The position numbers and the translations under genes were made by a program. This document shows, in pieces, positions 53,074 to 64,000 of a DNA stretch of 64,000 nt. The DNA comes from Usitatibacteraceae bacterium. GTDB taxonomy: Bacteria; Pseudomonadota; Gammaproteobacteria; Burkholderiales; Usitatibacteraceae. Position 1 is the stretch's first letter, and each line of letters begins with the position of its first letter. The stretch is taken from contig JBCKPN010000001.1 in NCBI GenBank assembly GCA_038901695.1, positions 1,105 to 65,104 of the forward strand, written 5' to 3'. The notes under the pieces are model-generated. The model was not told the origin of the DNA and ran no database searches. It saw only the letters and a list, made by a program, of their open reading frames with translations.

Positions 53074-53406
53074 CTAAATACATCCGGTCGGTTTTGGCAG
53101 GCCGGCAATTTTGCACGCTTGTTTCGCCGGGCCATAGGGGAAAAGTTCATACAGATATTTGCTGGTACCCTTGTCCGCGCCGAGTTTTTTACCAATGGAT
53201 TTTGTCAACACGCGAACGGCCGGTGCAACTTGATACTCGGCGTAGTACTCCCGCAAGAAGTTCACCACTTCCCAGTGGTTTTCGTTCATGTCGATTTTTT
53301 CCTCCACCGCGAGGTGCTTGGCGGCGTCTTCGGTCCACTCCGCCAAATTCAATAGATAGCCTTCTTCGTCAGTTTCATAGGTCTTCCCGTTTATTTCGAA
53401 TGCCAT
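53074..53406 (-). CDS. dsrC: DsrC, sulfur-carrier protein with both redox-active cysteines
   Basis: It starts MAFEINGKTYETDEEGYLLNL and contains ...HWEVVNFLREYY... The C-terminal arm is PAKQACKIAGLPKPTGCI, with Cys-x10-Cys and a penultimate-region Cys. Confidence 0.92.
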   Translation of the reverse strand: MAFEINGKTYETDEEGYLLNLAEWTEDAAKHLAVEEKIDMNENHWEVVNFLREYYAEYQVAPAVRVLTKSIGKKLGADKGTSKYLYELFPYGPAKQACKIAGLPKPTGCI

Positions 53407-53461: not shown

Positions 53462-53761
53462 TTACAACCACGAGTGGACGGCATGGTGTTGCGCGACCAA
53501 TTCAACAAAGCCGCCGTAATTGACCAACTCCACGCCCTCAGTTAACGCGCCCGTCATTCCGCGCGCTTCCAAGTCGGGTGCTAGCGCGTAGACTTTTAGC
53601 GAGGGCATCGCGTTGCGAATTTTTGATTCCCCGGGGCTGCCCTTGGTCGCAGCGTAGACCGCATCCTCGATCAGCAGCAAGGCATTCCCCGCGCCGGCCA
53701 CACGCAGGCAACTATCCAGTGAAGTGTTTTCGGTCGGCGATTTGTTTACGATGTGTAGCAT
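53462..53761 (-). CDS. dsrH: DsrH
   Basis: It is a 99-aa DsrH/TusB-like protein positioned after dsrF. Confidence 0.85.
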   Translation of the reverse strand: MLHIVNKSPTENTSLDSCLRVAGAGNALLLIEDAVYAATKGSPGESKIRNAMPSLKVYALAPDLEARGMTGALTEGVELVNYGGFVELVAQHHAVHSWL

Positions 53762-53774
53762 GGTGAAATCCTAA

Positions 53775-54188
53775 TCAAAAACTGATGATGACATCTTGTT
53801 CGGCCATCAACGCGCCCATCTGCGCCGAGGTCAATACTTCAACTGGAACGAGCAGTTGTTCCTCGCTTAGTCCCCTCACGTCGAGAGACTCTTTCTCGAC
53901 GTAAAGTTTTTCGATGTCATAACCTTCGAGTGCCCGATAGGTGGGCGAAAAATTCTTCATGCCAATGGCCTTGGCCTGCTGACCTTTGATGATCTCGTAT
54001 ACCCCATCGTCCAGGAAGACCATGCTCACGTCTTGATCGAATGCCGCGCTGATCAGCACCACTTCGAGCCCTTCAAGCGCGTACACCGTCCCATATGGGG
54101 CTTTACGGTTGACGAACATGAATTTTTTGATGGTGCCAGATTCCTGGCCGTCAGTTTCGATGTCTTCAGCCATGCGTTCCTCGGTCAA
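53775..54188 (-). CDS. dsrF: DsrF
   Basis: It is a DsrF/TusC-like protein. Its start overlaps the dsrE stop by 4 nt. Confidence 0.85.
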   Translation of the reverse strand: MTEERMAEDIETDGQESGTIKKFMFVNRKAPYGTVYALEGLEVVLISAAFDQDVSMVFLDDGVYEIIKGQQAKAIGMKNFSPTYRALEGYDIEKLYVEKESLDVRGLSEEQLLVPVEVLTSAQMGALMAEQDVIISF

Positions 54189-54544
54189 TCGCCAAACACC
54201 ATTAGTCGGTCGGCTTGAATGCCGAGTTCAACCAACTGTCCCAATCCGGAAATACGAAACCCATCGGCGAGAATTTCCTCGGTGATTCCTCGACGCAACG
54301 CAGCCGCAACGCAAACAACCAAATCTACCCCGTGGTCTGCCGCGAGCTTGGACCAGCGATTGACGATGTGCCGATCGTCTTGCGGCGGCTCAGTCAATTT
54401 AGTCGCGTTGTTGACGCCGTCATGATAGAAAAAAATACGGTTTACCTGATGTCCATTTTCAAGTGCCGCGGTTGCAAAGTGAAACGCCGTGTCCGATGCC
54501 TGATGGGTGTAAGGCCCCTCGCTGACGAGTATTCCGAATACCAT
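54185..54544 (-). CDS. dsrE: DsrE
   Basis: It starts MVFGILVSEGPYTHQAS... and contains ...DLVVCVAAALRRGI (DsrE/TusD fold with the active-site Cys). The start is trimmed from the track ORF, which overlaps dsrB. Confidence 0.85.
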   Translation of the reverse strand: MVFGILVSEGPYTHQASDTAFHFATAALENGHQVNRIFFYHDGVNNATKLTEPPQDDRHIVNRWSKLAADHGVDLVVCVAAALRRGITEEILADGFRISGLGQLVELGIQADRLMVFGD

Positions 54545-54557
54545 GATCCTCCTCGAA

Positions 54558-55631
54558 TCAGAATCGAATGTGCGTGGAGGCGTTGAGGCTGGCCCGCGAG
54601 CCGCGCCAGTCGTCAATCAAATACTTTGTGAAAGGCAACCCGGTTTTTTCAAAGAATCGCGGCCAGCCGATCCGCTCCACCCAGTCCGCCGTGCGCTCCC
54701 ATGGCCGGGCGTCTGCCTTGTAGGTGTAGAGAATTTTCTTGACCACTTCCGATACCTCAGGCCAGCGCGGCGGATTGTTTGGCAAGCCTGATGCAACCAA
54801 CTTCATAAACGTTGGTTTGCCGCGCGCGTTGGAATTCTTGCCACCAACCCAAATGGCAAGTTTGGAATGCTCCGGATCATTGATTTGCATTGGCGGGCAG
54901 GGCGGATAACAGGCGCCGCAGCAGATGCATTTCTTCTCGTCCACTTCCAATGAAGGCTTGCCGTTCACCAGCGCCGGACGAATCGCCGCAACCGGGCAAC
55001 GCGCGACGACAGCGGGTCGCTCGCATACGTTGGCGACCAGCGCATGATTGATTTTTGGTGGCTTGGTGTGCTGCACGACGATGGCAATATCGGCTTGTCC
55101 GCCGCAATTGATTTCGCAACAGGACGTAGATAGGTGCACGCGATTCGGCATCTCCTCCTTGATGAACTCTTCGTATAGGTCATCCATCAAGGCCTTTACT
55201 ACGCCTGATGCATCAGTTCCGGGAATATCACAATGGAGCCAGCCCTGTGTGTGGGCAATCGCGGATACCGAGTTGCCGGTGCCGCCAACCGGGAAGCCAT
55301 GTTTGGTCAACGCCTCAATCAGCGGCGCGACTTTGCTCTGATCCGCGACCATGAATTCAATATTGCTGCGGATGGTAAAACGCACGTGGCCGTCGGCGAA
55401 CTGGTCGCCAATGTCACAAAGCGTGCGAATGGTAAACAAGTCCATCTGCCGCTGGGTGCCTGCGCGCACGGTCCAGATTTCCTCGCCGATATGGGAAACG
55501 TGGTGCAGGACGCCGGGGCGCGGCCGGTCATGGTATTTCCAGTTGCCGTAGTTTTTCAACATCACAGGGTGCATGTACTGCTTGTTGTCCGGCACACCGC
55601 TCTCTATTGGCGCTCGCATTTCACCCATCAT
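54558..55631 (-). CDS. dsrB: dissimilatory sulfite reductase beta subunit (reverse/oxidative type by context)
   Basis: It carries siroheme/Fe-S cysteines and the ferredoxin insert CPVAAIRP...KCICCGACYPPCP. The length is 357 aa. Confidence 0.93.
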   Translation of the reverse strand: MMGEMRAPIESGVPDNKQYMHPVMLKNYGNWKYHDRPRPGVLHHVSHIGEEIWTVRAGTQRQMDLFTIRTLCDIGDQFADGHVRFTIRSNIEFMVADQSKVAPLIEALTKHGFPVGGTGNSVSAIAHTQGWLHCDIPGTDASGVVKALMDDLYEEFIKEEMPNRVHLSTSCCEINCGGQADIAIVVQHTKPPKINHALVANVCERPAVVARCPVAAIRPALVNGKPSLEVDEKKCICCGACYPPCPPMQINDPEHSKLAIWVGGKNSNARGKPTFMKLVASGLPNNPPRWPEVSEVVKKILYTYKADARPWERTADWVERIGWPRFFEKTGLPFTKYLIDDWRGSRASLNASTHIRF

Positions 55632-55678
55632 CTTCTCCTGGCAATTCTTTCGTGGAACATGGTGTTTCGAATCGGAAC

Positions 55679-56959
55679 CTATGCCGCCACTTTTTTGGCG
55701 TTGATCTTGGCGACTTCGTCGTCCCAGCCGTCCATCCGGACATACGGATTCGTACGCGGTGCTGTCACCATGTTTACATCAATTTCGACGCCGATGCCTT
55801 CTAGGAAATTTACCAGCCCAATGCGTTCGATCATCTCGCCGGTGCGCTCGTGCTCGAGCGCATTTTCAGCAAAGAAATCAATGACCTTTTGGCCGAGCTC
55901 AACCAACTTTTCGTAGTCTTCCTCGGTGTCGAGCTTCAGGAACGGAACGATCACCGTCCCCATCAAGTCGCCGATTTTTAGGGTCCGCTTGCCGCCAATC
56001 AGAATTGTTGCACCTTTATCAGTGCCGGTGGCCAACGCACCGGTCATCACGTTGATGCAATGCATACAACGCACACAGTTGCTGTTGTCAATCTCAAGAG
56101 ACTGGGTGTCGTTGATCGCGACACTGGATATCTTTTCACCCTTGGCGACATTCTTGGTTTCCTTGAGCATGATGGTTTTCGTCGGACAGCGACTGATCAC
56201 GTCATTGACCAATTCGTCCATGCCATGCTTTGCAAACCACTTTTTTGCCAGCACTTCGTCGGTCCGCATATTGTCGCGCCACGTGCCGATGACCGCCATA
56301 TCCGAGCGCTGAATGGAATTCATGCAGTCGTTGGGGCAACCTGAAAATTTGAATTTGAATTTGTAAGGCAGTGCCGGGCGATGAATGTCGTCAATAAACG
56401 TGTTCAGCACCTTGCGATGGGCTTTGGCTTCGTCGTAACAGGATTGCTCGCAGCGTGCGGCGCCAACGCAGGACATCGACGTACGTACCGCCGGGCCTGC
56501 TCCACCCAGATCGAATCCCAGTTCGTTGATCGCATTGAATGCGTCCTGTACTTTTGCAGAGGAAGCGCCCTGAAACATGATGTCACCGCTCTGGCCGTGG
56601 AACGCGATCAGGCCGGAGCCGTGTTCTCCCCAAGCGTCGCAAAGTTTGCGCAGAATGTCAGTGCTGTAGTGCATACCCGGCGGCGGTTGCACGCGCAAGG
56701 TGTGAAACTCTGCCGATTCGGGAAACATGCTGGCGACTTCAGAAAACCGCGGAATAATCCCGCCGCCATAACCAAACACGCCGACCGTGCCGCCCTTCCA
56801 GTAGCCTTTTCTGGTTTTGTACGAATGCTCCAGTTGACCCAGCAGGTCAACCATGTAGTCCTTTTCCTTGGCAAGACGCTTCAAGCCGGTGACGAAACTG
56901 GGCCACGGGCCGCTCTCGAGTTGGTCGAGCATTGGGGTGTCATATATTTTCTTTGCCAT
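55679..56959 (-). CDS. dsrA: dissimilatory sulfite reductase alpha subunit (reverse/oxidative type by context)
   Basis: The motifs MSCVGAARCEQSC and FSGCPNDC are present. The ferredoxin insert reads CPTKTI...CVRCMHCINVM. The length is 426 aa. Confidence 0.93.
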   Translation of the reverse strand: MAKKIYDTPMLDQLESGPWPSFVTGLKRLAKEKDYMVDLLGQLEHSYKTRKGYWKGGTVGVFGYGGGIIPRFSEVASMFPESAEFHTLRVQPPPGMHYSTDILRKLCDAWGEHGSGLIAFHGQSGDIMFQGASSAKVQDAFNAINELGFDLGGAGPAVRTSMSCVGAARCEQSCYDEAKAHRKVLNTFIDDIHRPALPYKFKFKFSGCPNDCMNSIQRSDMAVIGTWRDNMRTDEVLAKKWFAKHGMDELVNDVISRCPTKTIMLKETKNVAKGEKISSVAINDTQSLEIDNSNCVRCMHCINVMTGALATGTDKGATILIGGKRTLKIGDLMGTVIVPFLKLDTEEDYEKLVELGQKVIDFFAENALEHERTGEMIERIGLVNFLEGIGVEIDVNMVTAPRTNPYVRMDGWDDEVAKINAKKVAA

Positions 56960-57317
56960 GGCGCCTTCTCCTGTGAGAACTATTTACCTTGCGACAATCA
57001 TATTCCGGTCGCTATGACGACTCGTTGTTTTGTGCTGCATGCCGAAACGGTGCGGAATGCTGGTGTCCATATCCACCCGCGTAACAAGTGTAAACCAGTA
57101 CACTCTTTGCATGGTGGAACAGTACCATTGTGTTCGCGGCGTAACGATAGACCTGTTAGGGGGGGGGTGGCCATTACCCATATGGGGTATGCGCAATCCC
57201 CCGTCGTGGCTATAGACTGGGGTAGGGGCAATTCTGCCCAATGCTAGCCTGTGCGCAGTCGTCGCCCGCGCACGTTATAGGGCTACAAGGTGTCGGTATT
57301 TCGCGCGCAATCTTAGG
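56960..57317. promoter_or_regulatory. divergent promoter/regulatory region between dsrA and the Cas6-like operon
   Basis: The spacer is about 358 bp, non-coding, and lies between divergently oriented first genes. It contains a G9 tract (57159-57167) and the near-palindrome tacccatatggggta. No promoter boxes were assigned with confidence. Confidence 0.5.
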
Positions 57318-57602
57318 GTGAGATTCGCATTAACGTTGGGGCGACGCGGATTTGGCGCTCGCATGGTGCTGGAGCATGGCATGACCACAATTGTCCCGCT
57401 AGAAAAATTTCACGTGCCGTTGGGTGGGCAGGATATTGAACTGCAGCAAATTGATTACGCGGGCGGCGGAATGAGTCTGTTGCGTATCCGAATACGCGAG
57501 GGCAGCCGGTTTACAATTTTCGACATCGACCCCGTTACGGCTGCGCAAATTGCTGGTGCCATTCAAACTTGGGCGGACGCGCAATTACGGGACGTCGTAT
57601 GA
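57318..57602 (+). CDS. small hypothetical protein, first gene of the divergent operon
   Basis: The ORF is translationally coupled to the next gene (ATGA at 57599-57602). The start is uncertain: GTG 57318, ATG 57363 or ATG 57381. I recognise no family. Confidence 0.45.
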   Translation: MRFALTLGRRGFGARMVLEHGMTTIVPLEKFHVPLGGQDIELQQIDYAGGGMSLLRIRIREGSRFTIFDIDPVTAAQIAGAIQTWADAQLRDVV

Positions 57603-58216
57603 CAGAGCCAGATCGACAATCGACGTTCGTGGACGTTTTGTTTGCGTTGGAGGGCAGCGCATTGCCGAAAGACTACCGATTTCTGCTCATGCGAGAGATT
57701 GGCCGCCACCTGCCTTGGTTCGAGTCGGATGACTCGGTCGGCATGCACCCGATTAAGGCGTCCAAAACAGATTATGGAATGGTGCTGTTGCCGCGACGCG
57801 CCAAACTGATTCTGCGTATGCCGCAGACGCGCGTCGCAGAAGTTCGCGTGTTGATTGGGGCGGTACTCGATATTGCGGGTCATACGCTGCGTGTTGGCGA
57901 GTTCACCGTGCGCCCAATTCAACCATATGGCACTCTTTATGCGTACTTTGTCGTTGACGACACCGGAGACGAGTTGGCCTTTATACGGCGCATCGAAGCG
58001 CAGCTTGATGCACTTTCGGTTCCATGCAGCGTCGTCTGCGGGCAGCACGGCGCGCTACAGGGGGACGGGCGCGAGTTGGAGGGCTACAGCCTGATGTTGC
58101 ACGGTCTTGCAGCACCACACTCGGTCAGGTTGCAGGAAACAGGTTTGGGGAGCGATCGCAATCTCGGTTGTGGCATGCTCGTACCGCATAAATCAGTGGT
58201 GGCGGTAGGGTTTTAG
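57599..58216 (+). CDS. orphan Cas6/Cmx6-like RAMP-family protein
   Basis: The C-terminal glycine-rich loop LQETGLGSDRNLGCGMLVPHKS is typical of Cas6/RAMP proteins. The N-terminus FVDVLFALEGSALPKDYRFLLMREIGRHLPWF...GMHPIK resembles the Cas6/Cmx6 (type I-MYXAN) family as I remember it. The length of 205 aa fits. Confidence 0.55.
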   Translation: MTEPDRQSTFVDVLFALEGSALPKDYRFLLMREIGRHLPWFESDDSVGMHPIKASKTDYGMVLLPRRAKLILRMPQTRVAEVRVLIGAVLDIAGHTLRVGEFTVRPIQPYGTLYAYFVVDDTGDELAFIRRIEAQLDALSVPCSVVCGQHGALQGDGRELEGYSLMLHGLAAPHSVRLQETGLGSDRNLGCGMLVPHKSVVAVGF

Positions 58217-58265
58217 CTGCTTGAGATGGGTTGGCGGCAATTTTGATCTGGAAAGGATGGGCGAA

Positions 58266-58595
58266 ATGGCTTACTTGATCGACGGCGTTGAACGTGAAAC
58301 TGATGACTTGGGATACTTGCTGGAACCAGACTACGGCGCGGATGTACCGCCGGTGATTGCCGCCGCCGAGGGCATCACCCTGACCGATGCGCACTGGGAG
58401 GTCATCAACTACTTGCGGGAGGAATTCAAAGAACATGGACACACACCCAACTTTCGTAATTTGATGAAAGGGATGGAAACAATTCGCGATGGCGTGGACA
58501 GTAAATATCTGTACAACTTGTTTCCAATGGGGCCGGCCAAACAGGCCGCCAAGGTTGCCGGACTGCCCCAGCCGCTGGGTAAGGGTGGGTACTAG
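58266..58595 (+). CDS. DsrC/TusE-family protein lacking both conserved cysteines
   Basis: MAYLIDGVERETDDLGYLLEP...HWEVINYLREEF... parallels DsrC residue by residue. The C-terminal arm is PAKQAAKVAGLPQPLGKGGY, whereas DsrC has PAKQACKIAGLPKPTGCI. Confidence 0.75.
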   Translation: MAYLIDGVERETDDLGYLLEPDYGADVPPVIAAAEGITLTDAHWEVINYLREEFKEHGHTPNFRNLMKGMETIRDGVDSKYLYNLFPMGPAKQAAKVAGLPQPLGKGGY

Positions 58596-58642
58596 CAATC
58601 ATGCGTGCGGTTTCTTGCAGGTTTAGAAGGCGGGATTGAGCA

Positions 58643-59254
58643 ATGTGTGCAATGCGATTAAAGAGTCACTGGTTCAAGGCAGACAAACCCAAGACCATGA
58701 AACAAATGGCGGGCGCGATGGCGTTTATCACCTGGAGGGTCACCGACAATGCTCTCAAGCAACTGCGGACGGCCAAGTTCGACATCGACGCTGGCCCGCA
58801 GTATTTCGCTTTCACCAGAGAATTTCTGGTGTTTCTGATCCAGATCGCGGACCGCATCGCCTATGAACGCTTGCAACCACAAGAGCGCGTCGAATTTACA
58901 ACCGAGCTGGTGATCCGGCTGTCGGAAATTTTGGAAGAAAACGAAGATCGATTGCTTGAGCCGCCGCTGAACCAAAGTTACAGAAGCCGATTCATTGACT
59001 TATTCAACGAGCTTTCGGATCATTACGCGGAATTCAAATATGTGGACAACAATCCGGACTTCGCGTTCGTGCGCTATTTGGGTAGTCGAGTCACCGAACT
59101 CATGGTGGCGAAGGATCGCACTTGGGTGATGGATCAGATCATGGCCATTGAGGCACCCGACGCGATCAAATTTCTGCAGCAGAGTATGACGGACCTGTTC
59201 CATACGGGACCGCGCGAACGCTCGAAGCGGCCGGCGCGTGCTAGCGGCGATTGA
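58643..59254 (+). CDS. hypothetical protein, 203 aa
   Basis: The ORF has ordinary, non-repetitive amino-acid composition, unlike the shadow ORFs nearby. Its stop abuts the next ATG. I recognise no family. Confidence 0.5.
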   Translation: MCAMRLKSHWFKADKPKTMKQMAGAMAFITWRVTDNALKQLRTAKFDIDAGPQYFAFTREFLVFLIQIADRIAYERLQPQERVEFTTELVIRLSEILEENEDRLLEPPLNQSYRSRFIDLFNELSDHYAEFKYVDNNPDFAFVRYLGSRVTELMVAKDRTWVMDQIMAIEAPDAIKFLQQSMTDLFHTGPRERSKRPARASGD

Positions 59255-60172
59255 ATGGCAACCGTAATGGCCACGGCGTGCACGGCAACACGACGCGATA
59301 GTCCGTTCGAGCTCGGCAATGACGATGCTTATCGACGCTGGCGTGATGAAAAGCTGCTTGACTATCCAGCGCGAGTCGACGAACTCGTGGTCGACGTTGT
59401 CGATCCGCGCGCGCTCACGTCGGCTGAAAAGGCGGCGATACTGGCGCGTGTCCGCAAGACCAATATGGCGCTATACGCAAGCAAGGTGCGTGACGCTGAC
59501 AAGAACATTTTGCGCCTGCTCGGCGGGCAATTTGGCCTTCTGCGCCTCGATCAAAACATGCTTGCCGACGACGATGGCATTACGCAAGTTAGGGTCGCCG
59601 ACGCCAATGCGGGCGCAGCGCAGCGCTATATCCCCTATACCAACCGCCCGCTCAATTGGCACACCGACGGCTACTACAATTCTCCTGCGCGACGAATCCA
59701 GGCGATGCTGTTGCACTGTGTTTGCGACAGCGTTTCCGGAGGTGAAAATGCGTTCATGGACCACGAAATTGCTTATCTATTTCTACGCGATGAAAACCCT
59801 GATTACGTGCGTGCGCTCATGCATCCGGATGCCATGACGATTCCTGCGCGCGAAGACGACGATGGCGTTGCACGTGGCGCGCAGTCTGGCCCGGTGTTTG
59901 CGATCGATCCGCATAGTGGCGCGCTGCACATGCGCTACACGGCGCGAACGCGTAGTATCGAATGGCGACAAGATGCGAGCACTCAGGCAGCAGTAGCAAC
60001 GCTCGCCCAGCTACTCAACGCCGGCTCGCCCTATATTTTCCGCATGGCATTCAAGCCGGGAATGGGTATCATAAGCAACAACGTACTGCACGATCGCACC
60101 GGTTTTTCTGATGACGTTACCCATCGTCGATTGCTCTACCGTGCCCGTTACCTTGATCGGGTGGAACCATAG
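59255..60172 (+). CDS. TauD/TfdA-family Fe(II)/2-oxoglutarate-dependent dioxygenase-like protein
   Basis: The HxD motif is present in PLNWHTDGYY and the distal His in NNVLHDRTGF. The length is 305 aa. Confidence 0.6.
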   Translation: MATVMATACTATRRDSPFELGNDDAYRRWRDEKLLDYPARVDELVVDVVDPRALTSAEKAAILARVRKTNMALYASKVRDADKNILRLLGGQFGLLRLDQNMLADDDGITQVRVADANAGAAQRYIPYTNRPLNWHTDGYYNSPARRIQAMLLHCVCDSVSGGENAFMDHEIAYLFLRDENPDYVRALMHPDAMTIPAREDDDGVARGAQSGPVFAIDPHSGALHMRYTARTRSIEWRQDASTQAAVATLAQLLNAGSPYIFRMAFKPGMGIISNNVLHDRTGFSDDVTHRRLLYRARYLDRVEP

Positions 60173-60260: not shown

Positions 60261-61745
60261 ATGACGCAATGGCTAACATTATGGCGAGCCGCGCACTTGA
60301 TCGGGGTGTCGCGAAGTGTGCTGCAACAAAAAATCCGGGTCGGGGAGTTGCAAACGACCGAGGGGACTATTTCGACCGAGGAATTGTTAAGGGTGTACCC
60401 GCAGGTTCAGTTGGAAGAGTCGGGAGCCTTTGAGCGCGTCTCGAAAATCAAGGAACAGGCGTTCGGGCGTCGCGTGCGTGAACATGTGCTCCCCAGCCAG
60501 GAGGTATTGGCACAACGCCTGTTCGCGCAGAGCGAGGAACTGACCGACTTGCGTCGTCACTTGCAGCGTTATCACAATCTGGTGGTCGCCCTGCAATCGG
60601 GGATTCACGATGTCGCGACGGCATCGAACATAGATGCACTAAACAGTCTTGAATTATTTGCCGAGAAGGGACTTGCGGATGTACTCGCCACTGAAGCCGC
60701 CGATGTGTTGGATATCATGAACGACGCGTTAAAGGTCATGTTCGCCCAAGTGACCATCCGACCAAGCGGACGCGAGTTTACGGTCGAAGGTCACGATACA
60801 TTGCTGCAGGCGGGGTTGCGTGCAGGGCTTCGGCTCAACTACGGCTGCGGCAATGGCACGTGCGGCCTCTGCAAAGCTAGGGTGATTTCCGGTGCTGTGA
60901 CGCGGACGCAGCCGAGCGACTATCCGCTTTCAGAAGCCGAAAAATTGCAGGGCTACACGCTGTTGTGTTCGCATACGGCGGCGTCTAGCGAAGTCGTCAT
61001 CGAAACTTTGGAGGCGCGCGGCTCGCAGGACATTCCACCGCAGCAAATCGTCGCCCGCGTACGCGCTGTCACGCCGTTGGCGAAGGACACGCTATTGCTC
61101 CACTTGCAGACGCCACGGACTAATCGCCTGCGTTTTCTTGCCGGGCAAAGCGTCACACTCGGCACCGCCACCAACGGCGACGATGAGCACGCCGATTATT
61201 CAATTGCGAGTTGCCCATGCGATGACCGCAACGTGCAGTTCTACATTCCGCGAAATGCGAAAGACCTATTTGCCCAACGGCTGTTTGAAGGCGCGGTGAA
61301 AGTTGGCGATAGCGTGAGTATCTGGGGGCCGCAAGGAAACTTTATTCTTGCGGAGACTCAGCGCCCGTTGGTTTTTATCGCGTGCGACACGGGATTTGCC
61401 CCGGTAAAAAGTTTGATCGAGCATGCCATGGCGGTGGACGCGGCGGAATCGTTGTCGCTCTATTGGCTGGCTACGCGTGCTGACGGACATTTTTTGGCAA
61501 ACCAATGCCGCGCATGGGGGGAAGCGCTGGACAATTTCGACTATTCGCTGCATACCGACAGCGATGTTGCCGCCGGCGCGCGACATTTTCTGCCCGCGAT
61601 TCGGGCGGATCTTTTTGTTACCCAATGCGAATACTATCTTGCAGGCTCCGCCGAGTTTACCCAGACTATGTCTGACGAGTTGCGCATGGCAGGCGTGCCG
61701 CAGCGACAGATATTTGCGTTGGAAATGCGGGAATCACATTCATGA
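60261..61745 (+). CDS. fusion protein: N-terminal HTH + coiled region + plant-type [2Fe-2S] ferredoxin + FNR-like FAD/NAD(P) reductase
   Basis: The HTH-like start is MTQWLTLWRAAHLIGVSRSVLQQKIRVGEL. The ferredoxin motif is CGNGTCGLCKARV...LLCSH. The reductase part shows RFLAGQSV, YSIAS and LVFIACDTGFAPVKSL. Confidence 0.7.
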   Translation: MTQWLTLWRAAHLIGVSRSVLQQKIRVGELQTTEGTISTEELLRVYPQVQLEESGAFERVSKIKEQAFGRRVREHVLPSQEVLAQRLFAQSEELTDLRRHLQRYHNLVVALQSGIHDVATASNIDALNSLELFAEKGLADVLATEAADVLDIMNDALKVMFAQVTIRPSGREFTVEGHDTLLQAGLRAGLRLNYGCGNGTCGLCKARVISGAVTRTQPSDYPLSEAEKLQGYTLLCSHTAASSEVVIETLEARGSQDIPPQQIVARVRAVTPLAKDTLLLHLQTPRTNRLRFLAGQSVTLGTATNGDDEHADYSIASCPCDDRNVQFYIPRNAKDLFAQRLFEGAVKVGDSVSIWGPQGNFILAETQRPLVFIACDTGFAPVKSLIEHAMAVDAAESLSLYWLATRADGHFLANQCRAWGEALDNFDYSLHTDSDVAAGARHFLPAIRADLFVTQCEYYLAGSAEFTQTMSDELRMAGVPQRQIFALEMRESHS

Positions 61746-62104
61746 TTGCAAATCAGGAGGCGCCACAACCACCAGCATCACTGATGGCTGTAGACAGTAA
61801 TTGTGCGGGCGGTGAATCGTTTGCGCTGATGGTGTTGGGCACGAGCATGGAGCCTGAATTCGTTGAGGGTGAAGTCATCGTCATTGAGCCGGATGGCCTC
61901 GCGACGGATGGTGCCTACGTATTGGCGTTTCTCGCCGAAGAGTGGACCATGCGGCAGCTGGTGCGGCGTGGCGACTTGTGGGTATTGCATGCCTTGAACG
62001 CAGCGTTTCCGGATGTGTCGATCCCCGACCTCGCGCCCGTCAAAGGCGTCATTATTCAAAAGTCCAAACCCGGGCGACGGCGGGCTTCCAAGCGATATGT
62101 TTAG
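61742..62104 (+). CDS. stand-alone S24 (LexA/UmuD-like) peptidase domain protein
   Basis: The Ser motif is LMVLGTSMEPEF with a beta-rich S24-like fold pattern, and no DNA-binding domain. Its ATG overlaps the upstream stop (ATGA). Confidence 0.6.
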   Translation: MIANQEAPQPPASLMAVDSNCAGGESFALMVLGTSMEPEFVEGEVIVIEPDGLATDGAYVLAFLAEEWTMRQLVRRGDLWVLHALNAAFPDVSIPDLAPVKGVIIQKSKPGRRRASKRYV

Positions 62105-63878: not shown

Positions 63879-64000
63879 ATGGTAATGGTAATGGTAAATG
63901 GCCGAGAAGTCCCCACCGACTCAGAGGGCTATCTCAAAAATCTCGAGGAATGGTCGGAAGAGTTCGCGCGCGTGTTGGCAGCGCAAGAGCAACTGGAGCT
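63879..64000 (+). CDS. TusE/DsrC-family protein (5' part only, cut by window edge)
   Basis: MVMVMVNGREVPTDSEGYLKNLEEWSEEFARVLAAQEQLEL follows the family N-terminal pattern (xxGxxxxTDxEGYLxxxxxW). The C-terminal cysteines cannot be assessed. Confidence 0.65.
   Translation, partial: MVMVMVNGREVPTDSEGYLKNLEEWSEEFARVLAAQEQLE

Follow-up and report, generated by a model that had tools for sequence, protein, structure and literature searches.

A conserved cysteine-less DsrC paralog with an invariant KGGY tip, a probable accessory of the oxidative Dsr pathway

Dissimilatory sulfur metabolism centers on DsrC as its substrate protein, whose chemistry is believed to depend entirely on two cysteines, the penultimate CysA and, ten residues upstream, CysB. 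TusA and rhodanese are established donors feeding DsrEFH and DsrC (PMC7596348). According to what that paper relates of Lenk 2012, the name dsrQ was introduced there for a TauD-like gene lying upstream of dsr, which was reported for mostly aerobic chemotrophic sulfur oxidizers (PMC7596348). The family name DsrC/TusE/RspA, in which cysteine-less members figure as "regulatory sulfur-related proteins" (RspA), goes back to Venceslau 2014 as that work is cited in PMC8477390 and PMC9371685. In the reverse Dsr (rDsr) region of Methylovirgula thiovorans, two DsrC-like proteins without CysA are encoded near TusA, DsrE2A and TauD/DsrQ, and were placed in the RspA group without experiments (PMC9371685). 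Here we analyze a gene of this kind, at 58266-58595 on the forward strand of a 64,000-nucleotide stretch ("the window") of contig JBCKPN010000001.1 from a Usitatibacteraceae bacterium, where it lies beside the oxidative dsr genes. Our results suggest that its product is probably an accessory of the oxidative Dsr pathway, and neither a decayed copy of DsrC nor a proven regulator.

The open reading frame (ORF) encodes 109 amino acids (MAYLIDGVERETDDLGYLLEP...PAKQAAKVAGLPQPLGKGGY) and closes with a TAG stop (58593-58595). An initial annotation made from the letters alone had called it a DsrC/TusE-family paralog near the bona fide dsrC cluster, had stated that both functional cysteines are replaced, that the arm, longer by two residues, ends in GKGGY, and that the fold and the flexible arm are kept, and had concluded that the protein cannot carry persulfide or trisulfide sulfur. 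All of these statements stood. The protein matches PF04358 (DsrC; E = 3.6e-31, 108.2 bits against a cut-off of 24.9) and TIGR03342 (94.4 bits against 53.5), and is 47% identical over its full length to the DsrC of the window (tail ...AKQACKIAGLPKPTGCI). It contains no cysteine at all: Ala95 occupies the CysB position, CysA is gone from the tail (...PLGKGGY), and after the conserved AGLPxP the arm continues for six residues (LGKGGY) where DsrC has four (TGCI). Because no cysteine is left, cysteine-based carriage of persulfide or trisulfide in the manner of DsrC or TusE is precluded. Modelled with AlphaFold on 28 orthologs, the protein has a mean predicted local distance difference test score (pLDDT) of 92.7 and is disordered (pLDDT <50) only at residues 106-109; its top Foldseek match is Allochromatium vinosum DsrC (1YX3; template modelling score, TM, 0.85; root-mean-square deviation 2.0 Å), followed by further DsrC structures (TM 0.83 to 1SAU). 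The matches among solved structures were 2-Cys or 1-Cys DsrC/TusE-type chains only, and none was of the KGGY type.

By its sequence, the protein is neither a bona fide DsrC nor a TusE. The DsrC motif of DiSCo, AGLPKPTG(not N)CA with at most one difference allowed (PMC8477390), is departed from at several positions by AGLPQPLGKGGY. The C-terminal cysteine of TusE is absent, and the TusE profile NF008562 scores 82.1 bits against a cut-off of 191. Nor does the protein resemble a ThiS/MoaD-type carrier, since its fold is DsrC-like and not beta-grasp, and an invariant tyrosine follows the two glycines. As a DsrC-family member without the conserved cysteines, it fits the loosely defined RspA class.

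The tip is extremely conserved. A search of a 5.8-billion-protein collection returned 2433 homologs, and among the best 120, from which the details are drawn, 119 are exactly 109 residues long and the ending GKGGY is common to all. These proteins differ at the position of CysB (A, V, G, C, T or P), which is thus under relaxed constraint. In an alignment of 28 rows, which takes in Comamonadaceae, Gallionellaceae, Sulfuricellaceae and others, columns average 80% identity, and K106, G108 and Y109 are invariant. Among 54 orthologs the tail codons drift synonymously (AAG/AAA, GGC/GGT/GGA/GGG, TAT/TAC) while the residues stay fixed, and the median ratio of nonsynonymous to synonymous substitution rates (dN/dS) is 0.154 (841 pairs with dS between 0.3 and 2). 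Judging from these substitutions, the paralog is under strong purifying selection. It might be argued that the residues defining DsrC function are absent and that the gene is therefore a decaying, functionless duplicate of dsrC. However, its reading frame is intact in every genome seen, and a dN/dS of 0.15, high column identity across families, more than 2400 homologs, near-uniform length and an old, separate place on the tree (see below) all run counter to this idea, so that the conservation data refute it and leave it next to no probability. A pseudogene was likewise rejected on the value of dN/dS.

What has been kept of DsrC, and what has changed, can be read from a comparison of 57 GKGGY, 4 RKGGY and 64 DsrC sequences. 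The base and hinge of the arm are common to the paralogs and DsrC (P87, P90, K92, Q93, K96, A98-G99-L100-P101, P103 and G105), both keeping the motif FPxGPAKQxxKxAGLPxPxG, as are R51, P61, R64 and K68. The positions specific to the clade are the tip and the loop 58-60, which reads G-H-T in the GKGGY type and Q-I-A in DsrC. The clade is also strongly acidic, with a median isoelectric point (pI) of 4.75 and a net charge of about -8.

In a maximum-likelihood tree of 84 DsrC-family members, the dsr-linked GKGGY proteins form one clade (support 100/98), whose sister (98/87) consists of proteins from other classes ending in ...AGLPES(R/K)RKGGY. Together they lie apart from the 2-Cys DsrC and from the TusE clades. 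When the tree was rebuilt without the tail and CysB columns, the KGGY proteins again formed one clade (98/87). The tip is therefore ancestral in an old lineage and does not reflect convergence or recent loss. The idea that the gene arose when a duplicate of dsrC lost its cysteines recently and locally was accordingly rejected, because the tree places it in this old separate clade. GGY is the ending of 27 of the 150 top matches in a library of 1.84 billion cluster representatives, with tail variants such as LPESRRKGGY, LPQSTRKGGY and LPQVMRKGGY. No KGGY-type relative was found among the viral contigs searched.

The lineage is closely tied to oxidative dsrAB. Two samples, one of the order and one of the phylum, comprised 401 genomes each. 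In the order sample the GKGGY type was found in 70 genomes, always as a single copy, and DsrA in 83, with 69 having both; the association is very strong, and we give no probability for it because related genomes are not independent. Five of the 14 genomes with DsrA only were rechecked at a lower threshold, and two proved to have a KGGY-type gene adjoining dsrA, one of the GKGGY type and one, in the window's own family, of the RKGGY type. In the phylum sample, nine genomes have the KGGY type, all with DsrA of the oxidative type and all among the 11 whose DsrA is at least 64% identical; it was seen neither in the 339 genomes without DsrA nor in the 51 with a more distant DsrA (46-57% identity), the latter having only 2-Cys DsrC. 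Five RKGGY genes lie away from dsrA, yet all five genomes have dsrA. Four of these genes stand in housekeeping surroundings (a mutL-like gene, parAB, a polA-like gene), the fifth about 6 kb beyond the end of a dsr gene cluster, and a Cas6-like homolog, the usual neighbor of the GKGGY type, is detectable in only one of the five genomes. These distributions indicate that the tie is to oxidative dsrAB more than to the Cas6-like neighbor, and that it is frequent and not universal. Two genomes of one genus, for example, have a DsrA at 70% identity and no KGGY type; they encode another thiol-poor paralog, ending ...ACKIAGMRRPRGWSTG.

The gene order around the paralog is also conserved. In 80 related loci from reference genomes, the order of the window (DUF6967, Cas6/Cmx6-like, paralog, p203, then usually a TauD-family oxygenase; Table 1) is kept in all 80 as far as each contig reaches, and dsrA is divergent from the operon in all 71 loci that reach far enough upstream. 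The DUF6967 gene holds the same position, and the Cas6-like gene adjoins the paralog, in every locus extending that far. Conservation within the operon is highest for the paralog, with 63-77% identity to the window copy; the Cas6-like protein reaches 32-45% and p203 31-60%. The p203 gene was found in 79 of the 80 loci; L057, the only one without it, ends about 140 bases after the paralog. Its product has no Pfam or NCBIfam match; its model is all-helical, with six long helices (pLDDT 92.4), and found no neighbor in the PDB by Foldseek (best E = 0.1, TM below 0.3), so the predicted fold has no counterpart among solved structures and gives no hint of function. An extra sulfurtransferase gene sits exactly between the paralog and p203 in 31 of the 80 loci, namely a tandem rhodanese in 11 loci of Sulfuricella type (e.g., L081 8414-9271) and a double, fused TusA in 20 loci of Gallionella, Ferriphaselus and Casimicrobiaceae types (e.g., L059 8472-8945); the window has neither. 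The TauD-family oxygenase gene, which in the window corresponds to dsrQ by position and Pfam family, is absent from Sulfuricella-type loci, and the two genes at the 3' end of the window's operon (Table 1) occur mainly in Comamonadaceae-type loci, in a few unclassified Burkholderiales and in one Casimicrobiaceae locus.

We propose that the paralog, with its DsrC fold, is a functional, thiol-less accessory of the oxidative (reverse) Dsr pathway that docks on DsrC partners, a tentative reading that we would put just short of an even chance. It would dock on one or more of rDsrAB, DsrEFH or the TusA/rhodanese donors, its KGGY arm entering where DsrC would insert CysA. Carrying no sulfur itself, it might gate, scaffold or protect the relay, perhaps as a competitor of DsrC or by fixing a partner in a defined state, and it would probably act in a complex with the products of its operon neighbors. 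A mimic of DsrC is the simplest interpretation because the body and hinge of DsrC are kept and only the reactive tip is changed, and the sulfurtransferase genes inserted next to the paralog implicate the relay that loads DsrC. Several points weigh against this interpretation. We know of no link between the Cas6-like neighbor and sulfur chemistry. Four of the five genomes with off-locus RKGGY genes have no detectable Cas6-like gene, and the operon partners therefore cannot be essential to the role of the tail. Some genomes with oxidative dsrAB (G136, G317, G412, G531 and G562) have no KGGY type, and so it is not a core Dsr component. Moreover, docking alone leaves the invariant lysine and C-terminal tyrosine unexplained.

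It would be tempting to account for these two residues by supposing that the KGGY tip is modified and carries sulfur or redox equivalents without cysteine, either on a modified lysine or tyrosine, possibly produced by TauD/DsrQ, or as a glycine thiocarboxylate formed after removal of the tyrosine. K, G, G and Y are invariant while their codons drift, the tip is flexible in the model like a swinging arm, and an alignment of the arms anchored at PxG can place Lys106 at the CysA position. The gene is followed immediately by a double-TusA or rhodanese gene in the 31 loci mentioned above, and most loci have a TauD-family oxygenase in the operon. SyrP and KtzO are examples of TauD-family enzymes whose substrates are tethered to a carrier, and the modified site of the mycofactocin precursor is a C-terminal Gly-x-Tyr. 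However, the operon encodes no conserved ligase, adenylating enzyme or protease, and p203, all-helical, has neither a nucleotide-binding fold nor a PDB neighbor. DsrQ is missing from Sulfuricella-type loci and is not among the genes flanking the off-locus RKGGY genes, the rest of those genomes being unsearched, and the invariant terminal tyrosine speaks against a simple removal exposing GG. We therefore consider a covalently modified arm unlikely, though not far-fetched. Its boldest form, in which the tip is a cysteine-independent reactive arm and the paralog a second, chemically different substrate or carrier of oxidative DsrAB in aerobic and facultative sulfur oxidizers, is quite improbable; the reactive group would then possibly be a lysine or tyrosine modified by TauD/DsrQ, a protein-derived cofactor, or a C-terminal thiocarboxylate loaded by TusA or rhodanese.

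Two further explanations look to nucleic acids. In the first, the main reading of the initial annotation, which had suggested a regulatory or decoy role, the paralog would be a regulator of the RspA type, whose helix-turn-helix (HTH)-like part binds the control region between dsrA and the divergent operon and regulates dsr. DNA binding by A. vinosum DsrC was reportedly observed by Grimm and coworkers in 2010. Some 1.3 kb separate the gene, in its divergent operon, from dsrA, residues 39-70 weakly match a LexA-like DNA-binding profile (E = 0.0026; 17.9 bits, below the cut-off of 23.7), and LexA chains are the first non-DsrC matches in Foldseek (E = 0.44, probability 0.6). That sub-threshold match is nevertheless the only DNA-binding signal, R51, R64 and K68, which are conserved in the helix pair, also occur in true DsrC and are not clade-specific, and a protein of such strong acidity is less likely to be a classical DNA-binding regulator. 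In addition, regulation leaves the invariant K-G-G-Y-COOH tip unexplained, the RKGGY relatives lie far from dsr promoters and are found only in genomes with dsrA, and in many loci the operon includes a dedicated HTH protein anyway. The label given to cysteine-less DsrC-like proteins near dsr in PMC9371685 and PMC8477390, which cite Venceslau 2014 for it, favors a regulator, but as relayed there it reflects inference and not experiment. On balance a regulatory role is distinctly unlikely, and the idea of a docking decoy fits better, because the arm base is common to the paralog and DsrC and because sulfurtransferase genes are inserted in 31 of the 80 loci; the interpretation in the initial annotation is thus supported in part. 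The other explanation would make the paralog a partner of the Cas6-like protein in a ribonucleoprotein that processes or stabilizes RNA, e.g., a dsr transcript, with the basic K/R-G-G-Y tip contacting the RNA. The constant adjacency of a Cas6-family gene and the RRK/RGG-like basic tip of the RKGGY variants agree with it. Yet the protein is very acidic overall, no Rfam match was found in 56900-58700 even at E up to 1, the Cas6-like gene is undetectable in four of the five RKGGY genomes, and the rhodanese and TusA neighbors indicate sulfur transfer and not RNA; we regard it as very improbable. The thiol-less accessory docking on DsrC partners thus remains the reading that we prefer.

The features of the window are collected in Table 1.

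Table 1. Coordinates of the paralog, its sequence elements and the surrounding genes in the window
Feature	Position	Strand	Evidence
DsrC-family paralog without any Cys, KGGY-tailed clade	58266-58595	+	ORF, PF04358, fold model
AAGGA Shine-Dalgarno, 8 nt 5' of paralog ATG	58253-58257	+	direct sequence reading
Ala95 codon, at the CysB position of DsrC	58548-58550	+	alignment to DsrC
Codons of tip K106-G107-G108-Y109, immediately before stop	58581-58592	+	invariant tip in homologs
DUF6967 protein, first gene of divergent operon	57318-57602	+	PF22295 5.2e-28
Stand-alone Cas6/Cmx6-like protein, immediately 5' of paralog	57599-58216	+	PF09559 5.8e-52, TIGR02807
p203, ~200 aa, immediately 3' of paralog	58652-59254	+	conserved ORF, 79/80 loci
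TauD-family Fe(II)/2-oxoglutarate oxygenase	59255-60172	+	PF02668 5.1e-20
HTH-[2Fe-2S]-FNR protein, 3' part of operon	60261-61745	+	domain matches
S24 peptidase, 3' part of operon	61742-62104	+	domain matches
Bona fide DsrC, CysB-X10-CysA (...QACKIAGLPKPTGCI)	53074-53406	-	PF04358 2.8e-47; in 2-Cys DsrC clade
Oxidative Dsr core dsrA, dsrB, dsrE, dsrF, dsrH	53462-56959	-	ORFs; same arrangement in related loci
dsrA	55679-56959	-	ORF, part of oxidative Dsr core
dsrB	54558-55631	-	ORF, part of oxidative Dsr core
Third DsrC-family gene, start only, runs past window end	63879-64000	+	PF04358 2.1e-34

The dsr core is divergent from the operon of the paralog, and no terminator-like sites were found in the 49-nt and 47-nt gaps on either side of the paralog gene. 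Several 9-mers recur in the intergenic regions between dsrA and the DUF6967 gene, in 16-30 of 77 loci; one of them is the dsrA ribosome-binding site, of the others only some occur in the window, and they could represent a shared, putative promoter or operator. One recurrent 9-mer, GGCTATAGA, stands at 57209-57217, within the intergenic region 56960-57317. The assembly is a metagenome-assembled genome (MAG) of 2.1 Mb that is 69.6% complete. Neither DsrA nor a KGGY gene was found in the five other sampled genomes of the window's genus, and DsrA occurs in two of the nine sampled genomes of its family; this rarity suggests that the dsr island was horizontally acquired or lies on a mis-binned contig. 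A contig assigned to Candidatus Levyibacteriota (Candidate Phyla Radiation, CPR), L057, has the same dsrABE..C / DUF6967 / Cas6-like / KGGY arrangement, and its KGGY protein is sister (100/100) to one from a betaproteobacterial MAG; the phylum assignment looks like a binning error in a public MAG.

The assembly has three DsrC-family genes, all on the contig of the window. The third, whose start at 63879 had been recognized correctly in the initial annotation, continues in L002 (1486-1824); its product ends in ...QKQGNRLAGLLKTKGEH, has no CysA or CysB and one internal cysteine, and takes a long branch beside the KGGY clade. By its sequence, the contig as assembled encodes one true DsrC and two paralogs without arm cysteines; the initial annotation had noted neither this loss in the third gene nor the age and separateness of the KGGY lineage. 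A further type, which keeps CysB and has no CysA, ends in ...ACKIAGM(K/R)RPRGWSTG (L071, L082, L064, L121 and L123). Its genes (L071 10613-10942, L082 9880-10209, L064 9774-10115) come immediately after the TauD-like gene in L071 and L082, and it also occurs in two dsrA-positive genomes without the KGGY type. Since other cysteine-less tails exist in the family (...SFGSV and ...RPRGWSTG), RspA as defined is probably heterogeneous. We also noted a tandem-repeat DsrC-family protein of 541 residues in the cluster-representative library (P0122), with five consecutive DsrC-like stretches, which ends in ...AGLPRIVGTI and has no terminal cysteine.

These observations bear on how the pathway is understood and predicted. 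A single-copy paralog that is as conserved as DsrC, is found almost only with oxidative dsrAB and occurs in at least 83% of the dsrA-positive Burkholderiales genomes sampled suggests that chemotrophic sulfur oxidizers may use, in their oxidative Dsr pathway, a component that has escaped study. The paralog can also mislead pathway predictors based on counts of DsrC-family matches. Furthermore, the paralog, a Cas6 relative free of CRISPR, DUF6967 and a protein of novel fold form a defined module that is genetically tractable.

Our literature search found no paper on the KGGY tip, on a separate KGGY clade or on its co-occurrence with oxidative dsrAB, none on the fixed operon of a Cas6 relative, DUF6967 and p203, and no functional link between Cas6 and DsrC; KGGY, GKGGY and RKGGY were not used in this sense, and searching by Thiobacillus locus tags gave no matches. 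Among known systems, the paralog is closest to the oxidative-type DsrC (A. vinosum 1YX3 and the DsrC of the window), with which it shares the Pfam and TIGRFAM family and the fold, 43-47% identity, the arm base and hinge PAKQxxKxAGLPxPxG and a location beside dsrAB. It differs from it in having neither CysA nor CysB, in an arm longer by two residues with the invariant KGGY, and in its separate clade; whereas the DsrC gene lies inside dsrABEFHCMK, the gene of the paralog belongs to the divergent operon with the Cas6-like, DUF6967 and p203 genes. TusE (E. coli YccK), which serves the sulfur relay of tRNA 2-thiouridine, is a member of the same family, but the paralog has no TusE cysteine, falls outside the TusE clades and has no tusBCD context. 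The names that it bears in databases, "TusE/DsrC/DsvC family sulfur relay protein" and "tRNA 2-thiouridine synthesizing protein E", are misleading for these reasons and because it scores below the NF008562 cut-off. Finally, it is like RspA proteins, DsrC-family members without the catalytic cysteine(s), whose regulatory role is a proposal. Within RspA, the KGGY-tailed lineage is apparently an undescribed subgroup, distinct and well defined, with a conserved gene module of its own.

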